Part shown: piece by piece, positions 2,258 through 18,222 of the stretch | Layout of the letters: the number at the start of each line of letters is the position of its first letter | Position numbering within the stretch: the stretch's first letter is position 1 | Assembly: GCA_000182565.2 (NCBI GenBank) | Contig: KQ257453.1 | Length of the DNA stretch: 20,000 nt | Origin: Spizellomyces punctatus DAOM BR117 | Lineage: Eukaryota | Direction: 5' to 3' (one strand) | Position numbers and translations under genes: made by a program | The notes under the pieces: model-generated | Database searches by the model: none | Told to the model about the DNA's origin: nothing | What the model saw: only the letters and a program-made list of their open reading frames with translations

Positions 2258-3735
2258 ATGATCAGCGAAACATGGCAAAAGATTGTCATTCCCATTGCTG
2301 CAGTGCTCATATCTTGGATCGCTCACACACTCCTCTTTCTCCTCTTGCGCTGGGCTGCTCGCAAGACGCCTTGGCCATTTGATGATGAGTTGGTCTGTTA
2401 CAGGTACCTTGTTCAACATGTTTGCTGTTGTTGCGCTTTTTGTGTGCTGTACAAAGTTTGCTCATGCTCGCTTTGATAGCAAATGGCCGCTCTTTGTCCT
2501 GTTTCCAATCATTGCCGTCCTCGTTGCACTTGCAAACATAAGTGTCGATCCAAATACCTTTGTCACGGTTCAGAGGATCTTTATCGTCCTGTTGATTGCT
2601 GGGATTGGCTATTTGGCTTGTAACATGGTGAGATGTATGTATTCTGCACAAGAAGGATGAGGTGGAAAATACTCCAACGGATGGATGGAGCCCAGGCAAA
2701 AAAACCGAGTTGCGACGGAAACATGCAACCAAAAAGCAGCTAACCTTGTCTTTGTCTTGACCAACAGTGGCAGCTTTAACTCTTATCCGCGCAAATAAGG
2801 TCGAATCTGAAAACAACCTCCACGCCCGCATCGCTCACACCCAAGTCCAAGTCTTCAAACGTCTCTGCTATGGCTTCATCGCAGTCATTTGCGCGGCTTG
2901 CATCGTCTTCACCTTTCCCGCCGCATGGCAAATCGGAGCGTCTCTCCTTGCCTCAGCTGGAGTCATGGGCATCATTATTGGTATCGCCGCAAAGCCTATT
3001 CTCGAAAACTCTCTATCAAGCTTGATCATTGCCGTCACACGTCCGATTCTTCTTGATGATGAAGTCATTATTGATGGAGAATATGGCCGGGTAGAAGCCA
3101 TTCACTCCATGTATGTTGTCGTCCGGACTTGGGACGCCCGTCGACTCATTATTCCCCTCTCCCGCATCTTTACCTCAACATTCGAAAACTGGTCCCGTCG
3201 CTCCCCCTGGAAAATTGGAACTATATTTATCTACCTTGACCCATCCGTTCCCGTAGACGCCCTCCGCACAATCTACATGGACAAGGTCCTTCCCTCCTCG
3301 GGTGGACTCTGGGACGGCAAAGTGGCCAATTGCGCTGTGACAGACGTGACATCAGATGGATTCCTTCAAATTCGCTTTCTAGCTTCCGCTCAAGACCCAT
3401 CCAAAGCATTCGATCTCCGGTGTCATGTTCGCGAAAAAGTCGTGGAAGCAGTCCAACAGCGCTGGCCATGGGCTCTGATTCGTCATCGTCTTGAAATCTC
3501 CACATCCATGCCCAAACATGTACTGAACGACGGAGACCGACTTGATCCATTGATGAACCAACCCGTCCGACCACGGCCTCTCTCTGATCAAGCAAGCCTG
3601 GAAACTATTCGACAAACGAGCGAAAAAGTTCTTTTCGATGGATTGGCGCGAGGAAATTTGGATGATGCTGGCCATCATGATGGCGGACAGTATGACGGTG
3701 GCCATCATCAGAACGTTGGTGCCGAACATTCGTAG
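2258..3735 (+). CDS. MscS-family mechanosensitive ion channel, bacterial type; join(2258..2403,2480..2634,2768..3735), 422 aa
   Basis: Introns 2404-2479 (GTACCT...TAG) and 2635-2767 (GTATGT...GCTAAC...CAG) give 1269 nt in frame. MscS motifs: SLLASAGVMGIIIGIAAKPILEN (TM3), RPILLDDEVIIDGEYGRVEAI, YVVVRTWDARRLIIPL, FENWSR, FDLRCHVRE. Confidence 0.93.
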
Positions 3736-5862: not shown

Positions 5863-6314
5863 ATGCGAACCATCTTCTCCATCCTCTTGGCTAGCGTATT
5901 GATGGGAAGCGTTTGGGTATGTACGTTTGTTTTTCTTTTGTCAAAGTTTCCTTTTTGATGTTTTAAAACGACTTTGACATTTTTTAGGGGTTCCCCCAAA
6001 ATGTCGAGATTGCCGGTCCAGGAACTACAACCACTCACCCGGCTCCAATCGGCGGAGAAGCTCCCAGCGGTGCACCCATGGTAGCAGGTCCAGGCGGCGG
6101 TTCAGGCGGCGGCGACGGCGGTAGTGGTGGAGGAGGTGGAGGCAGTCCTACCGCCCCTTTCCCATCGTTTGAAGCATTCCCTTCGTTTGCGGTTCCGGCT
6201 CCGGCGCCTTCGGGGGCAGGTTTTGATGTTGCTGGGCCTGGTGGTACGTCTGTGCACCCGAGTGAGATAGCCACGGCTCATCCGAGTGCTGCTGCGCATC
6301 CTACGGCAGCGTAA
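5863..6314 (+). CDS. Small secreted Gly/Pro-rich protein; join(5863..5916,5988..6314), 126 aa
   Basis: Signal peptide MRTIFSILLASVLMGSVWG split by intron 5917-5987 (GTATGT...TTTTTAG); in frame with the 6078-6314 ORF. TATA-like TTTAAAAA near 5778. Confidence 0.82.
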
Positions 6315-6581: not shown

Positions 6582-8997
6582 CTACACTACCGGTTTATCA
6601 TGCGCATGTTTATCCACAAACTTTTGCAATCCCTTTGACATGTAGTAAGGTCGTTCCCTGGAACCATCATTCCGTTGTGAGTCTTCGCAAAACGAAATGA
6701 AAATGGTTGTGATGGCCATCGAAAAAGTGGAGAGGAAGGCGGTTGCGGTGATGTAGGAGAAGATAATGATAAACTATAGTGTGTGTTAGGTTCTTTGTCG
6801 AAGAGACAAACGCGACAAGAGGATGCTTACCACGAGGGGAACGGCATAGTTGGCGAAGACTTCGGTGTCCTTTTCGAGGTAGACCATTAGGCCGAGACCT
6901 CCAAGACCTGTGATAAACACAACAGCGAGTTTGCCGATGAAGATGAGGAAATTGCTGACTTTGTTGACAATGATGATGCTAAAAGCGGGTACGTGAGCCA
7001 GAGCTCAACACACTGTAGAAATATCCACTTGAAACCTACCGAAGTGCATTCGCAGCGATAATCTCCAACGCCATCCTTGCGGCCGTACAGAAACTGTATC
7101 CATAGACGGCGATCTCAACGTATGCATTCTTTGTCAACATTTTCAACAGCTTTTCAATGCACTTGAAGCAGCACTGGAGACAGCACAAACAGTATTGTGC
7201 TGCCTTGTTTCCTGTTCCCTTGACCCGTCGTTGCGCCTCAACAATCAGGAGACGTATCAACTGAACGATGGCAATGATGAGTGAACCAAACGCCAGCGAA
7301 CCGAGGTGGTATCGGAGGGTCCGACCGAAGGATTTGAGAACAGGGAGGGAAGGAAGGGCTTTCTTGTCTCGGGCCCAGTACCAACACGCAATGGCTCCAG
7401 CAACTGTGCACTGCCCGATCGCGACAATCCAGTTGTAAACCCACAAGAACCCAAACACGAAATACACTTGCAGGTACTGTAACGTCCCCGATGACGAGTA
7501 ATGCTTCCCAATATTGCTCAATCCTTCATTAATATCTGCTTCTACTGCACCGGCAATCACGTCACCCGATGTGGCAAGGAGGGCCATCACGCCGATAAAC
7601 ACAACCATCCAGATAAGGAGCACAAGGTACTTAAAGAACGGGAAGAAAACAATCATGGGCATGGCTTTCATGGATGTGCTTGCTTCTTTGATGATTCGGA
7701 CCGCAAGACGAATTCGACGGAGCATGCATAGGATGATGAGGGTAAGGATGAGGGCGATACCACCAATCACACAACCTAAAAACAAAAAACCGGGTCAGGA
7801 ACCCACTAGAATTAACAAAACAAAGCAGGACTTACCCAACGTCAATAACAGCTTCTCATTGTAAAGGGCCGCATCCACTTGCCCAAATCCAGTCCCCAAG
7901 AACCCTTGATGCAACACCGTAATTCTCAAGTAATTATAAATAAAGTACCCCGCCAGACCCCATCCAGCAAGCAACACCAGCGAAATCGTGAACCAAACAA
8001 GGAACCCCGCAAAGAACTGCAGAAGCAACAACCATGTCGCCGACAAGATGAATGCTGCTCCAACACAGACCGAAATGACCCACCAATTTTCAGCAAGGTC
8101 TTGGAAAATCATTGTAGCAACGTCTCGACCATTGAAATCTAATGAGAGTGTTTTCCCCCAATTTGGCGACGCCGTCGACTGGAAGGTTTGATTGTAGTAT
8201 GTTGCATTCGCAGCCGCTCGAATGTCCGCCAACAAAATCGTGGGTATACACCGATGCAAAACGGCTTCAGATTGAAGCGTAAGGGTACATGTTCCATTTC
8301 CAACCTGCCACATCCGACCTTGGACGTCGGATGCAGGTGAAATGTCATATGGACACACAATATAATTGTAGTCAGCCGTGTGCTGAGGACACTCGTAGAC
8401 ACACCTCTTGTACGTGTTGTTCACGTCAAGGTCAAAATAGTAGAGATACGTTTCGTTACGAAGATCACGGGCGGAATCAGTACCATTGATGGATCCACAG
8501 AGGTTACCCTCTGAATCCCGACCATATAAGAGACGATTGACGTTTCCGTACCGAATTGAATAGTATCCAATCGCAACCATGGCTCCAAAAGCAATGATAA
8601 ACAAAATGAGCCAAAACACATCATGGCATTTCCGATTCTTGACATTATCATCACTCGGTTTGGGTTCCTCCTCGTATCGCTCTATTTTATCTCTCTTTTC
8701 TTTCTTCCCTTTCTTGGCGCCCTCGGGAGGTGTCCATGCTTCCTGTCGCGCCCGTGGTGGTGGAGGTCCTCTTGGTTGACGGTCATACTGCGGACGGTCG
8801 TATTCGTGGTCATAGTTGGGTGCGTGGTGCACAGGCGGGTATGCTCGTCTGGGTTCGTATCCATCATCTTCGTACTCACGGGGACTGGGGTATGCGGGAC
8901 GGTGGTGGTAGGGGTTTTGGGGTGGAGGTGGGCCGCTGTATCGGGCATATGGGTCCTCGTCGTACGCACTTGGGTACACGGCGCGATGGCTCGGCAT
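6582..8997 (-). CDS. Choline transporter-like protein (SLC44/CTL, Pns1 family); complement(join(6582..6773,6831..6978,7040..7775,7836..8997)), 745 aa
   Basis: Three GT-AG introns (7776-7835, 6979-7039, 6774-6830) give 2238 nt in frame. Motifs RKCHDVFWLILF, YGRDSEGNLCG, YHLGSLAFGSLI, NAYVEIAVYGYSFCTAA, FCEDSQRNDGSRERPYYMS. Confidence 0.95.
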
Positions 8998-9652
8998 GTC
9001 GGATGCGTCGGTTGTGTCGGGTATGGTTGTTTTTCGTTCGAAGGTGTTTGTCTTGAGGGTATATGTTCACAATCCACAAATCAAAAGTGTCTTGCAAAAG
9101 AAGAAATCAGTTATTGCGAAAATGCTACGTTTCCTGTATCGGACACTCTTTATATAAATCACGCACTGCTCAGCGACATTTTCTTGGCTACAGCATTCTT
9201 GTTATTTTTCTTTTTACCCAAGGTATTTTCAGCAACTACACCCAACATTTCGGAGGGGTATTCCCGCCAAGCACTAAAATAACAATGGCGGAACATCTAT
9301 AAATAGCTCATCCCCACTTGGCATACCAGGCTCACACATATTGTATGAGATAAATATTCGCATGGCTTTGTGACAACATTGCAAACATGTGAGGGGTGTT
9401 TGTTGCTTGGCAGTTTTCAATCTTTGTCTCGGCGTACTCCTTGAATCTTGTGACATACGACTGGAGCTTGACCTATTTGGGCACAGAACAGTTGTGTTGC
9501 AAACCTGTGCAGGGAATATGAACAAGTAGAGAATATAGAGAATATACTCGATATTGCTACATACAATCTAGACAGGATATAGAGCATGCCTCCACTCCAC
9601 AGAGGCCGCAGGTAGAAACTGAATGACCATTCGTCTCGAAGCGTCGCCTCCG

Positions 9653-9844
9653 AACTCTCCGCTGATTATGTAACAAATTAATGTGGCGCAGGTCGGCGCC
9701 ATGCTGACAAGACCCGATCAGCATGTCGCATCCAACAACAATCTTCTACCTTCTGCAATTCCACCTTCCATGCTAAATCCTCTGATCAGGACATAGGGCA
9801 GCAAGCAAACGTTACCCTACCGATTGGGACCTTTCTTTCCAAGG
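9653..9844 (+). pseudogene. Dead partial duplicate of the CCDC130/YJU2B promoter, intron 1 and start of exon 2
   Basis: Collinear with 16943-17187: 21/21 AACTCTCCGCTGATTATGTAA, GCGCCATRCTGACAAG, CCGATCAGC, AACAATCT, ATGCTWAATCCTCT, AGGGCARCAA, TTACCCT, GAYTGGGACC. The ATG exon and splice donor are absent. Confidence 0.85.
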
Positions 9845-9858
9845 AAGGCTTCCCACTA

Positions 9859-10680
9859 ATTTACCTTAGAACCTTCTAGGTGCCCAATATCGTCATCCAC
9901 ATATTCCTGTACGCCCAGAAGGACACTCTTAAAGTTTTTGCCTATACCTTGTAATCACTTTGGCAGGCGCTCAAGTAACCGGGATTGCAGAAGCAGATGA
10001 AAACCGGGAACAGACTGAAGAACGATCCTTTGCTGAACTTGATAGCGACTTACGGGGGCAGTGTCATTTCAGACAACTACATTACGTGACTCGATCTCCT
10101 GTGTCTGACTCTTCGGCGTCTTGTGCGTTCATGCTCAACATTGTCATGAGCTGTTGTTCCACCAGACTTCTCGTCACATTCGTTTCATGCCTTTAAAAAA
10201 GCTACACGTTCAGCTTAAAGCTATGAAATCCTTGCTCGCACATAATCTGATGTGTCTTTCGCCACCGTTCTGCTTTAGTTGCTTTGAGCTCCGCTCTAAA
10301 CTTTGACTCTGGCCACTGCCGACACCACCACCCGTGCTCATCTCTAAATTGATCGGTACCAAAGACAAACGCAAGGTAGATGCAGCTTTACCTTGAAAGC
10401 TTTCAGCACATTAAGGGTCGCCAGCATATTCGTCTTTGTTGACTTGGCCATGCTTTTACTCGTGAGCTTACCCATGCAACGCATTCAACAATGGGATTCC
10501 GTGCAAGCGGTTCTTGATCTGATCTGAAGCGACAGTACATCACAAAGCAAATTTGGTTCAACATTCGCTGTTTTCAATTTCTCAAGGTGGACGTTCCCCA
10601 CTTGACCATGTTGTATGTCATCGTCATCTTCGTTAAAATTTGAAACGTTGATGACACGATTATCGAACGTCCGACGAGAA
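9859..10680 (-). pseudogene. Possible decayed intron-containing gene of unknown family
   Basis: Four minus-strand donors (GTAAGC at 10471, GTAAAG at 10391 with TTTAG acceptor at 10344, GTAAGT at 10053, GTAAAT at 9864) separate protein-like stretches (e.g. RRTFDNRVINVSNFNEDDDDIQHG, LQGIGKNFKSVLLGVQEYVDDDIGHLEGSK) broken by stops and frameshifts. Confidence 0.3.
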
Positions 10681-10764
10681 CCTTGCCTTTAAGGTTGGGC
10701 ACAGAGGGAGAAAACACAATAGCTCAGTTGCGAGCTTTTCGTAGGTTATCAAAGGAAATCCACA

Positions 10765-12740
10765 ATGTTGAAAACATCCATCCATCAGGCACACTGGACC
10801 CGAGGTATGGAGGTGCTCGATATTTTTTTTTCATCTTGCAACTCTCTGAAAGTCGAGATGACGCCATACTACCCTGCCGTACACACCCACTCAGCGTTAT
10901 GGTCTACAGAAAATACGGTGGTTGGTGTAGGCCATCCAAACTGGGTAAAATCGGTCGAGCTGCTGAAGCATATGAAAGGAGTGCGACTTACTGAAGTGAT
11001 GCGCTGAGAATTGTTGGCAAGGTTCCAAACGATGATGCTGGACTTTCTGCCATCTCGATGAGTGGCTAGGTGCAAAATGGAATGTGGGCAGTCTCAAAAG
11101 ACCAAAATGCGTTTGAAGACTGAGACAAGCGGTTTGTGGACTTTCTCGAGGATGGTATCGGTTCGGTTTGCATCATGACAAGAGGGCTATTGTTAGAAGA
11201 TCTCTGTTGCAGCCACAAGATTTCATCATCCATCGGTCTTTTCCATCCATTGTGGGAATGAGATGGCAAAGTCATTGCCAGAAGTTCTCCCCTCATCGTC
11301 CGAGTTTGGTTAAGCCCCCAATGGACTCCTTTGCAAAGGCTGTGATCGAAACCCTCGAGGACCGAGGTCTCATGCTATTTGGTCGCTCACCCTCTAACGC
11401 AAACCAGCAGAAAGATGATGGCGGTCGTGGCATTCGGCGAGATCCAGGAAGCCAACGCATTCTTGTCCGTTGCTACGTATACGGCTCTCCGCCATTGGCT
11501 TTGCACACATACGCACCTTTTCAACAACCCTTCCGTCTGGTCCTTCTTTTCCTCTCTAATGCTCTTTCATATTCCTCTCCACTCAGCGCAAGCGGCTCCT
11601 CTTGAAATATGAGCGACGACCCATCATGGTCAGCTGCTGCAGCCACGGTTGAAAGAGATATGCCCCAGATGATGCTGCTTCTTTGCAGGTCCAGTCATGT
11701 TTGTGACTAAGAATCCATGGTACCTTGGTTTTCGGCATCCTTGGATGAAGCATGACCATAGCCAATCATCCTGGCAAGGCGTCGCTACCAGAGGCATCCG
11801 CATTTTGTCCCAGCATCTTGATGACAGGTTAAGTGCATCACTTATAACATTGAAAGCCCACCTTGCTGCGACACATGGAGCAGAGAGCTGCGAAAGTAAC
11901 TTCGCCAGGAGCGGTATTTATTCATTTAAACTAACACCCTTGTCAGAAGGAAACGATGGTGTCGGACCTGCCCGAAATCGTCCTAACTCCCTTTTGGCGA
12001 CGCCCTGTTAAAGGTGCTGAGAACTCGTAACTTTACTAGTTCCTATTTCCGCAAGCTCCACATGCGTGGGTCATTACTGCCGAGAAATACAAAGGCGTAC
12101 CCATGAAATCAAGGACACAAGAGTCGAGCATGAGCGCCAGTGCGTTAAAAAGTTGACGATATCCCGAATTCAAGAAATTACACCCCTTGCCCTCGTGAGA
12201 TCTTTGGCAAACTGTACCTGTTAAAAACGACGATAAGATTATCGACGTATTATTTGGGTCTCCGAAAGCGGAACAACCGCATCAAAACTGGCGCCTCCTA
12301 ATGTTCGTAAAGACATCGATAATCTCATGCGAAAGGATTCTGTTCGAAGAGCGTTTGGCGCTCGACTCAGCCCTGTTGCCAACCCTCCAACAAATGCAAC
12401 CCATAGAGCCAAAAATCCCTTTGAAACTGCAACGTATTGGATGTTATGCAGACTCCACGACATGCAAAGACTTGGTGGCCTCGAAGGGTCAGAGCTCTGA
12501 AGTTGGTTAGGTCAAGATCCCGGGAGCTTTATCTCCCTATTCATGAAATGCTGGTGGGATGTGGTGAGGTAAATGAAATGGGTTTTAAGATGATAGGAAG
12601 TGTATCTTTTCGAATTGCATCTTCTTGCAGATCTTCATCTTTAGATGGTCCCCGACCCTATGGCACCGCCCAACATCACCTTGAGAGCCGGACTGTCCTT
12701 GCAACGTCAAAACATTCAACCAAATCTGGTCGAAGGTAAG
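10765..12740 (+). pseudogene. Possible decayed intron-containing gene(s) of unknown family
   Basis: Protein-like segments hop between frames. A well-formed 52-nt phase-0 intron at 11535-11586 (GTCTGG...CTAAT...pyrimidine tract...CAG) joins HLFNNPS to RKRLLLKYERRP. Boundaries are approximate. Confidence 0.28.
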
Positions 12741-13620
12741 GTCACCATCACGGCACATGTAACAGCTTCTCAACAATTCTTTCGTCAATCCTCTGTATCC
12801 ACACCATAAGAAACTGTTTGATGCAATTCAAAACAACACTCTAACCTCCAGCATCCGCAAACGGCAATCTTGAAACAAAAGTGAGCCATTTCCCGAGCTT
12901 GCTTATAGACCTTCTACTCTATAGCTGCTTGCTCGGTGGAATACGGACAAATATTTAAACTTTAAGTACTTATCAAAATATAAAGTAAACTACAGACGAA
13001 AATCAGCGCTATTTTCCGGAGATTAGCATAACTGCTTTGATGCAGTTTGACAACAGTGGAATGCACATTTTGCTAATTGTATGATAAAGGTGAGCATTTA
13101 GACAACAGGTAACTCGATTTTGAATAACCTCAAGTGCATTGATGGCCATGGGCGTGACGGGGTACTGTACACTGCCCTGCGAAAAGACTTTTCGCTCGGC
13201 AATCACATAAGGTTTGCAAAGGGATTCTTGTGCAGAATGGCAACGAATCATCTTTGACAAAGAAGGACTGCGGGTAAAAATGCAGCTACAACGAGGAAAA
13301 GGTTGCACCTTTCAAGCTCAGTCAGACTTTTGCTTCGTGGGAAGCGTGGTAGAGCCCGGGAAACAAAGCCCAAATGGCAAACATGAAGCATTGTGATGTG
13401 TATGTAGAGATTGACATTATTTCCCACGGGTCTTGAAAGTCGTAGCTACGACACAACGGAGCTGATCTAGTTCTGATTTATACGCTCCTTGCTATCAATC
13501 CGCGATGGCGACAAAAAGTTTGCCTCCATACATAACCCAAAGCACTTAAACCTCTGTTTTTACAACCAAATACTGAATGCTAAAAATTGGACATACTAAA
13601 TACGTTGATTGATCACGATA

Positions 13621-14448
13621 TAGCAATTGAGTAAAAGACAAATGCATCATAAAAATGATACAGTAAAGCATAATCAAGATATAAAACACGTATCATCAGT
13701 TTTGAACGATATAGTATATAATATCTCAGCTACCCAAAATACTCGACCTAAAATGCAATAGTTCCATTCTTGTATTAATGGGTAAAAGGTGTTGGAAAGA
13801 TGTATTAATGAGCCATAGAACGCAGATATCTGTGCTGTTCCTCTGTAATCCGTATGCTGTAGTCTCATTCTTGTGTGGATGGATGGGTAATAGCTGGTGA
13901 AAAGGAGTGATAGATGTTGGAAAGTAATCTGTAAGTCATCGATGACACTATTACTCAATCCTACGTCGGAAAGTATCTGTCACTGACACTATTACTCAAT
14001 CCTACGTCGGAAAGTATTTGCAAGTTGATCTACTTCTTGTGTGTGTGGGTAATAGAATGTGTATAATTATTCTTGTATAGATGGGTAATGGGTGTTGAAA
14101 AGTATTTGCAAGTTGAACTACGTATGGATGGGTAATAGATGGTGAAAAGGGATACTAGGTCTTGGAAAGTAATTTGTCTGGACGATGTAGCAAGTGAGTA
14201 AAAGACAAACGCATCATAAAAATCTACGTCTAGTCGTGCCAGATTCTCCTATGCAATTGAATAGGAATAATAGGTGTTGGAAAGTAATCTGTCTAGAAAG
14301 TATCTGTAAGGCATGGGGTCGGTTTGGCAGAGTGGTTAATGTGGTGGGTAATAGGTGGTGAATAGGAATAATATGTATTGGAAAGTAATCTGTCTGGAAA
14401 GTATTTGTAAGGCATGGTGTCGGTTTGGCGGAGTGGTTAACGCGGTGG
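13621..14448. repeat. AT-rich scrambled satellite built from reshuffled modules
   Basis: Recurrent GGGTAATAG, TGGTGAAAAGG and GTTGGAAAGTAATCTGT. Exact 34-nt repeat at 13943-13976 and 13984-14017; 36-nt repeat at 13621-13656 and 14188-14223; 101-nt-period duplication at 14261-14347 and 14362-14448. Confidence 0.88.
14318..14347 (+). pseudogene. 5' fragment (30 nt) of tRNA-Ser(GCT)
   Basis: GTCGGTTTGGCaGAGTGGTTAAtGtGGTGG, 27/30 identical to 14419-14448; no anticodon loop or T arm. Confidence 0.88.
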
Positions 14449-14500
14449 CCTGCTAAGCCATTTCCTTCTGGGAGCGCAGGTTCGAATCCTGCAGCCGACG
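14419..14500 (+). tRNA. tRNA-Ser(GCT), 82 nt, intronless
   Basis: Acceptor stem GTCGGTT/AGCCGAC, D stem GCG/CGC, anticodon stem GTGGC/GCCAT with loop CTGCTAA, long variable arm TTCC/GGGA, T arm GCAGG-TTCGAAT-CCTGC, discriminator G73. Confidence 0.97.
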
Positions 14501-14520
14501 TCCAAAAGTGAGTGGGATTC

Positions 14521-14526
14521 TTTTTT
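14521..14526 (+). terminator. RNA polymerase III T-run terminator
   Basis: T6 run 20 nt downstream of the tRNA 3' end. Confidence 0.7.
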
Positions 14527-14616
14527 CATTTTGCCTTCAAGATTCTTTTTTCAGTTTGCCTTGAAACGCAGCAAGACAATGAAGCGCCCGATATGGATAC
14601 CTTCCGGACTTTTTAA

Positions 14617-14996
14617 GGCCGCCTTTGCATTTTCAACAGATGGTTAGGAACAGCACGGCACACTCGGGATATCTTTGCATAAGACATTTATCCATCGATC
14701 GTCCATCTAAGAGCGAGACGAATCGTTGATATGCAAAGTCAAAAATATGCACCACGCAGAATGGGTTTTTGGTCTTTACTCAACCGTAGCAAGGGTACCG
14801 AGGACGGCGAATCAAGTCGGTGAACTCAATATCACCAACACTTATGGCCGCCCTTGCGTTTTGAAGAGATGGTTAGGAACGGCACGGCACACTCGGGATA
14901 CCTTTGCATAAAACATTTATCGATGCATCGTACATCTAAGGGTGTGACAAATCATTGATATGCAAAGTCAAACATCTGCACAGCAGAAGGGGTTTC
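14617..14996. repeat. Direct repeat of ~150 bp with 229-nt period
   Basis: About 14617-14768 and 14846-14996 share AGATGGTTAGGAACRGCACGGCACACTCGGGATA, CTTTGCATAA, CATCTAAG and TTGATATGCAAAGTCAAA. Confidence 0.92.
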
Positions 14997-15379
14997 GAAG
15001 CATTCTTTGTTACGGCAAGAGAAACCGACGGGCCTTATAGAAAAGCTAAGGAACACCCTAATCCCGATTGCAACTCTGAGATTACTTTGGATTGCAGGCA
15101 TGCAGGAGCTGTGCAGTCGATTGGTTCCGGCTGATGCCCTGGCACTCAAGCATTTTGAATGGGATAACGGCTTGATTTGCTGCAGAAAACTCTCGACGTC
15201 GATACCGTTCATAACGTTCGCCATAGGAAGCTTGCCGACCTATCGCGATCATTTTTATCTATTATCAGATACCCACAATATCCCTAATTTCACCCTAAGA
15301 CGAAACCCATGCATGATGCCAATCAGAATGTCTGAAGAGCCTGACAGTCACCGAGGGAATACCGCTTTTCGTAGATGCC

Positions 15380-16930
15380 AAGACTAACATATTTTAAACA
15401 TTGACATTGTTGCCTCGAAACGATGCTTTGGTCATCGAATGCCACCGGAAAGCATGGCAATACACATTGTAACTGAGGTCGTCTCAGTAATATTCGTCTG
15501 AAGAAATCTACCAATCACGGTCGCGGTGCCTATTTGCAGTGAACACATTGGTATATTAGTCCATTAGCGTCAAAGCATTGCCGTTGGTGGTGCATTTTCT
15601 GAATTGCCACGCCGCCGGCAGTTGTCAAAGCACCTGTTGTAGTATTGGTCGACTCTGTAGCGTTCGTTGTGGGAGCATACCCATGGTGCTGGTGGCTGTG
15701 TTCAATGTCATCAATCCAGATATCCTTGCATTTCCCTACCTGAACCTGTATCTCGGGAGATCTTATTGCTTCGGTACGAGAATAGTAAGATTGTACGGTA
15801 ATATAAGAGACTTTCCAGCTGAGTTGCGGCAACGATGCCACCTACCTACAGTGGAGGATGTTGCTTCCAATACGGCGCTCCAGCTGATAATTGCCTTCAA
15901 CCACGTTAACACGCCAGTGCCATAATACCAGTAGGTGGCCCCTGAAGGCCAGCCCTGCGAGTGAAAAGTGAGAAACCATAAGGATAGTGATATTTACCGG
16001 CACCAAAGTTCCCTCTTATCTCTGCCAATAGATGTACATCTACAGTGACGCTGTTGTTAAGAATCAAAGTTTCATCGATGTACAGAGTAGGTCCACATGT
16101 TTTCCGGAAGGAAATCCTCCTGCTATGATCAATGCGCTTGTCATAGAAGAAGGTGCTCAGTTATAGTAAGTAACAGTCCAGCGCCAGACAGTCTGCTAGA
16201 GAATGCAGTAGCACTATTCAGGTTTGTCATCGCCCGCACCTTAAACTTCCACCGATGTGCAGAGGATTTCGCTATCCTGATGCCATCTGAATAGATAATG
16301 CTACCACCTACAGTATTCATGTTTCGCCTAAAAGTTACTCTAATATTGAAACAATCCACGTAGATCCACTTGACGTGTCGTTTGTCCCGGTAATGGTTTG
16401 GTGCACAGAGGAATTTCTTTCGCGCAAGGTAACATCAACAGAAGAATTACATCTTCTTGCTTAAAGCAGCTCCATCCATTGTGAGGAAAGAACCACTTGA
16501 CAAAGTGCTGCCAGTGCTGTTTGTGATCAATCGAATGCGGTTAAGCGTCAGATTGCTGTTGTCTACAAGATTTCCCAATGCATCAGTGTTTGTAGAAGAT
16601 GTAATATTTCGACCTGAGAATGCCTGATCCATCTGAAGTGACAGATGCACCACGAAAGGATTTTGATACATATGTTGTGCTTGTAGCCTGTACACCTTGC
16701 AGAGTAGCATTTCCATGCACATGCAGGCCGTGTTCATACCTAATCCATCTTCAACGGTGACAGTAACGCTTGTTGGGCCTCTGCTCTTCCGAAACACCAG
16801 TTGGGGTTATGCTCCATGCCCAGCAGGGTACGTACCACTTCTGCATTTACCAAGTAGGACATTCATTTACCATTATGAATCCTTCCGCTATCATTCGTCT
16901 TCCAAGCACAGTTGTATCACCCTTCCCGTA
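15380..16930 (-). pseudogene. Frameshifted relic of a viral-type fibre/structural repeat protein (candidate endogenous viral element)
   Basis: About 8 degenerate repeats across three frames, e.g. TNATESTNTTTGALTTAGGVAIQK (15596-15667), TNSTGSTLSSGSFLTMDGAALSKK (16453-16524), NTVGGSIIYSDGIRIAKS/LHIGGS (16244-16317), SSMTSALIIAGG (16115-16150). Confidence 0.65.
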
Positions 16931-17062
16931 GCGATCACACTCAACTCTCCGCTGATTATGTAATAGGATCACGTGGAGTTAAACTGCGCCATACTGACAA
17001 GTACCGATCAGCCACGTCCAAAGTTGGTGGAAAGCGCAAACTTCATTCCCAACAATCTAACC

Positions 17063-18222
17063 ATGGCCGGTAAGCTTCTTCTACCCTTCCTCCTGTAGAA
17101 CTAGTTCTACTTTCGATGCTTAATCCTCTTACCAGACCGCAGGGCAACAAATAAATATTACCCTCCGGACTGGGACCCTTCCAAAGGCTCCATCAACACC
17201 TATGTAGGCCAACACCCCCTCCGCGAACGTGCCCGCAAACTCGATCAGGGCATTCTCATTATTCGATTCGAACTCCCCTTTAACATTTGGTGCACGTCGT
17301 GTAATAATCATGTGGGGATGGGCGTCCGGTACAATGCCGAGAAGAAGAAAGTCGATATGTATTACAGTACACCTATATGGAGTTTTCGTATGAAGTGTCA
17401 TTTATGTTCTGGGTGGATTGAAATCAGGACGGATCCAAAGGTATCTGTTTGGATTTTGGGGTGTATGTTGAGATGTTTTACTGATCATGGTTTTAGAATT
17501 CAGAGTATGTTATTGTGAGCGGGGCGAGGAAAAGGGAGGAATCATACGATCCTGCCGATATTGGATTACCGACCCTTAAAGACCCCGCTGCGGAAACACC
17601 CAAAACGGCATATGAAGCACTGGAACAGACCAACAACAACATTCAAGCGTCCCTTGAAACCGTTCCCCTCCTCACACTCCTTCGAGACCGTTCTGATAGA
17701 ACATGGAGCGATCCTTACGCCCTGTCCCAAATAATGCGGAGAAAGTTCCGAACGGAGAAGAAGGCCTTGGCTAAGGTTGAGAAAGAGGCGGCGGCTGTTG
17801 CAGAGAAATTTGGGTTGGGGGTCAAGGTGCTACCTGTGAGTGAGGAGGATGAGAGGAGCGCAAAGAGGATAAAGTATTTGGAAGAAGAGCCAGAGACACC
17901 GGAGGAAAAATTGGGAATTGTCAGAACACAAAATGTGTTTCGACGCAATGGAAAGACTGAGAAAAAGGCCCTGGCAAAAGTGCTGGACATGAAAGCCAAA
18001 ACAGTGGCGGATCCTTTTGCTCTTGCTCCTACTTCTTCTAACGGCGTATCATCGCTAGCTGCGTCTGATGGAAAAGAAGGCGTAGTTCTCCGACGGAATT
18101 CAAGAGAAAGCGAAAGGGATATCCAAACGAATCAATCCGCTCTTGTCCAATTCCCATCAGAAACACCATCCCTAGTCTGCCATGAATACGGGGATAGTGA
18201 TGAAAGCGACAAAGATACCTAA
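17063..18222 (+). CDS. CCDC130: CWC16-family splicing factor CCDC130/YJU2B; join(17063..17069,17136..17440,17497..18222), 345 aa
   Basis: Spliced product MADRRATNKYYPPDWDP...HPLRERARKLDQGILIIRFELPFNIWCTSCNNHVGMGVRYNAEKKK...FRMKCHLC...TDPKNSEYVIVSGA matches the CCDC130 N-terminal zinc domain. Introns 17070-17135 and 17441-17496; 1038 nt in frame. Confidence 0.96.

Follow-up and report, generated by a model that had tools for sequence, protein, structure and literature searches.

The window analysed here, by which we mean the whole 20-kb stretch (20,000 nucleotides, one strand) of contig KQ257453.1 of Spizellomyces punctatus DAOM BR117, is eukaryotic and fungus-like in its gene content. On its minus strand, at about 15397-16729 and beside a fungal housekeeping gene, lies a relic of ~1.3 kb, situated between a tRNA-Ser(GCT) gene and a divergently oriented Saf4/Yju2 gene. 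The relic contains one well-preserved unit and, probably, six or seven decayed units of a repeat of about 40 residues with the core TGAL..GG.GI, which occurs in fibre and other structural proteins of viruses (Table 1).

Table 1. Repeat units of the relic and other features of the window (ORF, open reading frame).
Feature	Position	Strand	Remarks
Unit 1	16604-16729	-	third frame; overlaps the start of unit 2
Units 2 and 3	16450-16611	-	consecutive, one frame; stop at 16447-16449
Unit 4	16242-16326	-	core and downstream blocks contiguous in the profile; one-base offset at 16263
Units 5 and 5'	16088-16227	-	S/T upstream block (16180-16227) and core (16088-16157) in different frames
Unit 6	15819-15867	-	weak remnant in two frames; raw 11.5 + 9.9 bits (chained alignment); alone not significant
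Unit 7	15548-15682	-	sole well-preserved unit; single frame, within the stop-to-stop ORF 15533-15841
Unit 8	15397-15530	-	two frames (15438-15530, then 15397-15444); stop at the end
Low-level RNA reads	15242-15469	-	strand inferred from the neighbouring gene; mean depth 2.9-6.5 vs 32-37 at the Yju2 3' end
Saf4/Yju2 gene	17063-18222	+	intact, intron-containing, divergent from the relic; context only
tRNA-Ser(GCT) gene	14418-14504	+	ARAGORN; Rfam tRNA 63.2 bits; ~0.9 kb past the downstream end of the relic
Choline-transporter-like gene	7036-9066	-	
MscS-like gene	2761-3735	+	

The repeat family was explored by scanning the IMG/VR database with a back-translation of the motif that a first-pass annotation of the window, made from the letters alone, had described as typical of viral fibre proteins. 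The TGAL..GG.GI motif is present on at least 120 IMG/VR contigs or loci, and the loci listed hold 117 ORFs with 167 exact motif matches. A unit profile of 42 columns, representing 336 units, was built from the motif-bearing viral ORFs; each unit of about 40 residues shows an S/T-rich lead, a TGAL.V.GG.GI core and then L.VGG. The repeat is also contained in PHROG 3018 ('head decoration protein', profile positions ~201-245), in PHROG 697 ('structural protein') and in a gene of Prochlorococcus phage P-SSM2 that is annotated 'tail fiber protein'. No Pfam family was found for the repeat, seven viral ORFs giving only collagen and Mtd_N matches elsewhere in the proteins, and at E<=1 the unit profile matched no solved structure. 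Of 8000 candidates scored with the unit alignment in a profile search, 5499 proteins reached E<=0.001. Of the 120 relatives listed, the majority come from metagenomes and are 900-2000 residues long; two bear labels of bacterial metagenome-assembled genomes (MAGs) and one the label 'viral metagenome'. PF13884, which we take to be the endosialidase-chaperone domain of phage fibres, is carried by 17 of the 120. Judged from these sequences the family appears typically viral and structural, in line with the earlier description. The only named homologue from a eukaryote genome among the 120 is P0104, an intact protein of 1113 amino acids ('hypothetical protein GGF31_003408 [Allomyces arbusculus]') whose gene lies on a 333,850-bp contig, and the units of the relic were compared with it as well.

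Unit 7 is the unit on which the identification of the relic is founded. Its segment 15596-15667 scores 31.6 bits against the viral repeat profile (independent E-value 4.5e-12 at Z=1) and is clearly the top profile match in all six frames of the window; the next two minus-strand matches, at 16115-16150 (7.2 bits) and 16242-16262 (3.9 bits), also fall within the relic. When the 117 viral ORFs were compared with the window by tblastn, 367 high-scoring segment pairs (HSPs) were obtained at E<=1, with 270 of them on unit 7 and 23 elsewhere on the minus strand of the relic. An exhaustive phmmer search of the ORF at 15533-15841 against 1.84 billion representatives gave 107 proteins at E<=0.001, including 17 at E<=1e-10 and a best value of 2.6e-24. 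All 107 matches run through query residues ~45-98, and the number of matched stretches per target, from 2 to 35, marks the targets as multi-repeat proteins; names looked up for ten of the best or selected targets were uninformative. Identity of unit 7 to P0104 is 61% over 23 amino acids. On its sequence, unit 7 can unambiguously be assigned as a copy of the TGAL..GG.GI fibre repeat.

Outside the repeat this ORF, of 103 amino acids and without an upstream ATG, found no counterpart. A word-indexed search of a 5.8-billion-protein collection yielded no longer relatives of it (E<=0.1) and no protein sharing the ORF beyond the repeat. A single-protein scan of IMG/VR returned no match, comparison with 50,697 GenBank phage records gave nothing at E<=0.01, and the ESM Atlas returned sub-threshold clusters only. 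Searches of eight minus-strand ORFs against Pfam and the PHROGs produced nothing significant; the best PHROG was 3018 (E 0.035), whose matched stretch, profile positions 205-232, is one that the viral ORFs hit too.

The remaining units are decayed and were scored by a frameshift-tolerant chained profile alignment. Units 2 and 3 are covered by a single tblastn HSP (16450-16602) to residues 595-649 of P0104, with 40% identity over 55 amino acids and 30.8 bits. Unit 1 is 37% identical to P0104 over 38 amino acids (23.9 bits), with a downstream block of 11.4-14.1 bits. In unit 4, which is 50% identical over 18 amino acids, the chained alignment spans profile columns 23-36 with a +1 frameshift. The core of unit 5 is the second-best match of the window (7.2 bits with HMMER, 10.4 bits ungapped; 43% over 21 amino acids to P0104), and unit 8 (29% over 31 amino acids) combines an upstream block of 13.8 bits with a downstream block, GNNVNV, in another frame. 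The six or seven decayed units are spaced 87-201 nt apart. In ungapped block scans the relic minus strand, which makes up ~4% of the scanned sequence, contributed 7, 9 and 10 of the top 25 matches for the core, downstream and upstream blocks, respectively.

Controls for these weak similarities were run with and without the strong copy. The relic minus strand has a chained score of 145.6 bits, compared with 39.4 +/- 8.7 (max 68.6) for 400 dinucleotide shuffles, 33.6 +/- 10.0 (max 59.4) for 136 other pieces of the window of the same size, and 29.7 for the plus strand of the relic. After removal of the strong copy the score is 99.1 bits vs 36.8 +/- 8.5 for shuffled DNA, and none of the 400 shuffles reach it. 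Column-permuted profiles score 70.2 +/- 10.0 (max 93.3) on the relic without the strong copy, again with none of 100 reaching 99.1; the part of the weak-unit excess that depends on residue order is ~29 bits. With P0104 as tblastn query and the strong copy removed, the best HSP of 30.8 bits compares with maxima of 23.9 in 300 shuffles and 15.0 with the reversed query, and four HSPs of >=20 bits compare with a shuffle mean of 0.13 (max 2) and none with the reversed query. It is thus probable, as far as sequence comparison can tell, that six or seven further decayed units exist that are collectively above chance.

The first-pass annotation had counted about eight motif copies, quoted as 11 peptide strings. 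All 11 strings are encoded on the minus strand at exactly the coordinates it gave, distributed over all three frames, and its expectation that a profile of the repeat would score better here than on shuffled sequence was borne out. The count itself is to be restated as one certain copy and six or seven probable decayed ones. Two of the quoted items, the peptide at 16738-16779 and the EATSSTVG/GGI pair at 15834-15867, have no support when taken individually.

The reading frame of the relic is broken throughout. Along the strand the units occur in frames 1,0,0,0,2,0,1,0,2,1,2,0, with in-frame stops after unit 3 (16447-16449) and after unit 8. The frame change at 16263 is not an intron, because the profile alignment continues across a one-base shift inside the unit; a shift at 16151 looks alike but has weak support, extending the alignment by no more than two residues. 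Splicing is no remedy: when permissive GT..AG splicing with up to six introns was allowed, no spliced model holding all units in frame was found, and the longest ORF that could be threaded (193 amino acids) removes the best unit. That the frame changes are present in the DNA itself was examined with sequencing reads. Independent DNA reads from chromatin immunoprecipitation (ChIP; run X18) cover all 30 bins, and 2348 of 2488 reads are >=99% identical. No indels are listed in these reads at a depth of 1-13, where a listing needs three reads; since depth is low, power to detect indels is low around 16040-16267. The contigs of two other runs, X1 and X2, show no difference from the window, but these runs may share their sample with the assembly. 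Homology interrupted by frameshifts and stops, as in a unitary pseudogene, is therefore what is found at this locus, with a read check of low power around 16040-16267.

P0104 indicates what an intact protein of this type looks like. Its ~20 units are accompanied by an N-module that is present twice and a C-domain of 233 amino acids. The C-domain recurs in L002, a 1253-aa ORF on a contig labelled as that of a giant-virus MAG, GVMAG-S-1035082-103 (E 1.8e-10), and the N-module is found in the same ORF at E 0.0012, or 4.8e-16 after iteration on very few sequences. A search with the C-domain gave 13 proteins, of which the Allomyces protein itself is the sole one that carries an organism name. A comparison of P0104 with GenBank phages yielded the 'tail fiber protein' of P-SSM2 at E 8e-8. 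Profiles of the N-module and the C-domain gave no match in the six frames of the window; a resemblance of 15842-16015 to the N-module, seen by eye, was discarded when the profiles gave it no support. As a separate observation, the N-module (residues 30-73) has a match in the PDB at E 1e-4, to chain 8ojn_C of a 'cell wall surface anchor family protein'.

The first-pass annotation had also pointed to a homotrimer prediction for an intact homologue. When three copies of residues 76-300 of P0104 were modelled, a single intertwined assembly was predicted with a score of 0.86 vs 0.00 for the best control; the mark used was calibrated on two copies, not three, with 21 of 30 solved homo-pairs and none of 23 single chains attaining it. 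The runs agree on >=96% of contacts, with a predicted local distance difference test score (pLDDT) of >=86 and ~1600 contacts, and a six-residue offset between chains is seen in many of the closest pairs. An AlphaFold monomer of a viral five-unit stretch is all-beta but poor (mean pLDDT 46). The modelling supports, but does not show, that intact P0104 forms a parallel trimeric fibre.

In our judgement the relic is quite probably a pseudogene, the worn-down repeat core of a virus-type fibre gene that was built of ~40-residue TGAL..GG.GI units and was gained by horizontal transfer. The ancestor would have been a horizontally acquired gene for a long, all-beta and probably trimeric fibre protein. 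During decay one unit would have remained well preserved and six or seven recognisable past frameshifts and stops, with loss of the non-repeat end domains. Today the locus would produce no fibre protein and would at most be carried on a weak minus-strand transcript, which may start at a promoter region common to the relic and the Saf4/Yju2 gene.

Several observations weigh against this explanation. In a Pfam survey (E<=0.01) of 66 ORFs of >=55 amino acids across 9200-17000 no family was detected at all, and hence no viral hallmark or mobile-element domain. The hallmarks of endogenous giant viruses (capsid, A32 ATPase, PolB and others) were absent around the relic in this survey, as were the features of Polintons and Polinton-like viruses (integrase, protein-primed PolB, double and single jelly-roll capsids). 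No terminal repeats were seen near the relic, only inverted repeats of 15-17 nt. The G+C content of the relic (0.43-0.48) is host-like and does not depart from the ~0.46 of the window as a whole, so that there is no compositional mark of insertion. About half of the raw excess of the weak units is due to amino-acid composition, since the column-permuted profiles already score 70.2. Some database relatives carry bacterial MAG labels or automatic 'adhesin' names, and the best single-unit matches lie in terminase-bearing jumbo-phage records and not in giant viruses. Finally, the minus-strand RNA at 15242-15469 leaves room for some transcribed function.

With respect to the donor, we slightly prefer a large DNA virus infecting eukaryotes, for example one of the giant viruses of zoosporic fungi, to a phage or a bacterium. 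More specifically, the relic might be the last trace of infection or integration by a fungus-infecting large DNA virus of Mycodnaviridae-like or Polinton-like type, a reading that we put forward tentatively and with less than even confidence. The first-pass annotation had named a large eukaryotic DNA virus or Polinton-like virus as the source; this was not demonstrated, as no hallmark, integrase or terminal repeat is found nearby and the closest units are in records with a phage terminase. A hint in its favour comes from unit profiles of the P0104 type and the phage type scored on the window, which gave 33.1 vs 30.5 bits and 10.7 vs 6.9 bits for single matches and 156.8 vs 149.9 for the chain; by sequence score the P0104/GVMAG-type unit would thus be preferred by only ~3-7 bits. 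GVMAG-labelled contigs account for two of the at least 120 motif loci, among the matches listed.

It is somewhat unlikely, though a serious competitor, that the same relic derives from a bacterium or a tailed phage, for example through DNA of a bacterial associate or the tail-fibre gene of its prophage, followed by decay. The closest unit of all, with 74% identity to unit 7 over 27 amino acids, is in L107, an IMG/VR ORF from a phage-like record of 200 kb with Terminase_6N. This terminase domain occurs in four of the five motif-bearing records tested (L107, L073, L099 and L103); none was found in the fifth, L022, which is 34% complete. Capsid of the nucleocytoplasmic large DNA viruses was found in none of eight large motif-bearing records, in a search without positive control and with the two GVMAG records not among the eight. 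The occurrence of the repeat in the P-SSM2 tail fibre protein and the bacterial MAG labels of some relatives point in the same direction. On the other hand, the Pfam survey of 9200-17000 detected no bacterial or phage gene flanking the relic, and the flanks are fungal housekeeping genes. P0104 is tied by two non-repeat domains to a GVMAG-labelled contig, P0104-type units fit the window slightly better, and giant viruses are documented in fungi (PMC13533422).

The relic was compared with three known systems. P0104 and L002 share the ~40-residue unit with a Lys after the GG.GI core, and it is this unit type that fits the window marginally best; unlike the broken relic, which is without these end domains, P0104 is an intact ORF with N-modules and a C-domain. 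The phage proteins (P-SSM2, PHROG 3018/697 and the jumbo-phage ORFs of IMG/VR) share the unit consensus and include the best unit identity, that of L107, but they are encoded by intact genes of 300-5000 amino acids in phage genomes. The third comparison is with the giant-virus 'fossils' of zoosporic fungi (Mycodnaviridae; Myers et al. 2026, PMC13533422), which bear out in print the statement of the first-pass annotation that endogenised large DNA viruses are reported in early-diverging fungi. In three chytrids, according to that paper, lone capsid genes lie on fungal contigs with host-like G+C content, and the relic resembles them as a lone virus-type gene on a fungal contig with host-like composition. 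These fossils are, however, defined by capsid and other hallmarks, whereas here a decayed non-hallmark repeat gene is all that is seen and the donor is unproven. The same paper describes an integrated giant virus, a mycodnavirus, in A. arbusculus; it is reported at contig 03: 1,397,320-1,743,578 of the Nanopore assembly, and the sole length stated is 345,111 bp, summed over two contigs. Fibre or tail genes are not mentioned in the text of the paper.

A different possibility is that the locus is a live gene, intron-rich or with short ORFs, or a domesticated fragment, such as a 122-aa product containing units 2 and 3. We regard this as improbable. The minus strand of the relic does hold ORFs of 119, 103 and 97 amino acids, and a 122-aa model that begins at the ATG of 16866, uses one intron of 51 nt and keeps only units 2 and 3 can be threaded; the plus strand, however, has equally long ORFs (142, 121 and 98 amino acids). 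The 5.8-billion collection contains no protein similar to the 103-aa ORF outside the repeat, the ORF of the best unit has no ATG ahead of that unit, and the longest spliced model removes that unit. The minus-strand RNA listed in Table 1 favours a live gene. It was obtained from a 3'-biased run in which reads over the Yju2 gene are confined to the 3' end (depth 10-37) and depth is near zero over the relic and most of the Yju2 gene; the reads at 15242-15469 may represent the 3' end of a weak transcript through the relic. There are no splice joints among the reads, but RNA depth is too low for this to be weighed.

Chance resemblance of S/T/G-rich translations of intergenic DNA to the motif is very improbable and is refuted for the strong unit by its 31.6 bits and the 107 matches of the exhaustive search (best E 2.6e-24), and although the weak-unit excess is largely compositional (permuted profiles 70 vs shuffled DNA 37) and several of the originally quoted peptides are individually insignificant, none of the 400, 100 and 300 controls reach the values observed without the strong copy.

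Two further read signals were noted at or beside the relic. Within it, a stretch of 42 nt at 15916-15958 attracts many partly aligned RNA reads (depth ~67) and extra DNA reads with loose ends on both sides. These reads all share the changes 15926 T>C, 15932 T>A and 15942 C>G, and no Rfam family is matched; the pile-up suggests that reads of an abundant RNA, whose gene lies elsewhere, have cross-mapped here. At the 5' end of the Saf4/Yju2 gene there is a ChIP sequencing peak at 17066-17400, at 10-30 times the flanking depth and with a shoulder to 16838. This peak is consistent with a promoter-type mark adjoining the relic.

The Saf4/Yju2 assignment is based on PF04502, which is matched by two exon ORFs (E 7.4e-47 and 8e-14). 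The relic lies ~330 nt upstream of the start codon of this gene, in divergent orientation. The first-pass annotation had described an insertion next to a housekeeping promoter; the adjacency to Saf4/Yju2 was confirmed, the insertion itself was not. No Rfam family was detected at E<=1 in 15200-17000. On the other side of the relic, the region 14000-14510 is a G-rich minisatellite with a GC skew of 0.42, in which the 5' half of the tRNA-Ser(GCT) gene recurs in part within 101-nt tandem units at 14258-14448. Replication slippage could explain the minisatellite, as could integration targeted to the tRNA, of which it would be a trace. The interval from the tRNA gene to the relic holds a direct repeat of 140 nt (14613-14752 and 14842-14981, 229 nt apart, 86% identical) without a Pfam-recognisable ORF. 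Further away, the ~5 kb of 9200-14000 contain many ORFs of 60-160 amino acids on both strands, with zero Pfam matches, and may represent intron-rich lineage-specific genes or decayed sequence. A Gly/Pro/Ser-rich low-complexity ORF at 5988-6314 (plus strand) draws spurious collagen-like tblastn matches from viral fibre proteins, and 40 of the 367 HSPs of the viral ORFs fall in 5900-6199, on both strands.

Taken by itself the locus is a dead fragment with no demonstrable effect. It belongs to a known kind, that of fungal gene fossils of viral or other horizontal origin, to which it adds a member. Fossils of DNA viruses in fungi are only now being catalogued, almost wholly by means of capsid and polymerase genes, and the relic illustrates that a non-hallmark structural gene can persist in recognisable form and that a frameshift-tolerant repeat profile can detect one. 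The repeat family concerned is abundant, yet it has neither a Pfam model nor a sequence-related solved structure. If intact paralogues among viral genes exist, they would provide a new host lineage and a candidate virion fibre for fungal giant viruses. Should the relic indeed be what remains of a large DNA virus that infected this fungal lineage, fibre-repeat genes would be part of the fungal giant-virus virion, and the fibre repeat would be a structural marker for viral fossils in fungal genomes that capsid-based surveys have scored negative.

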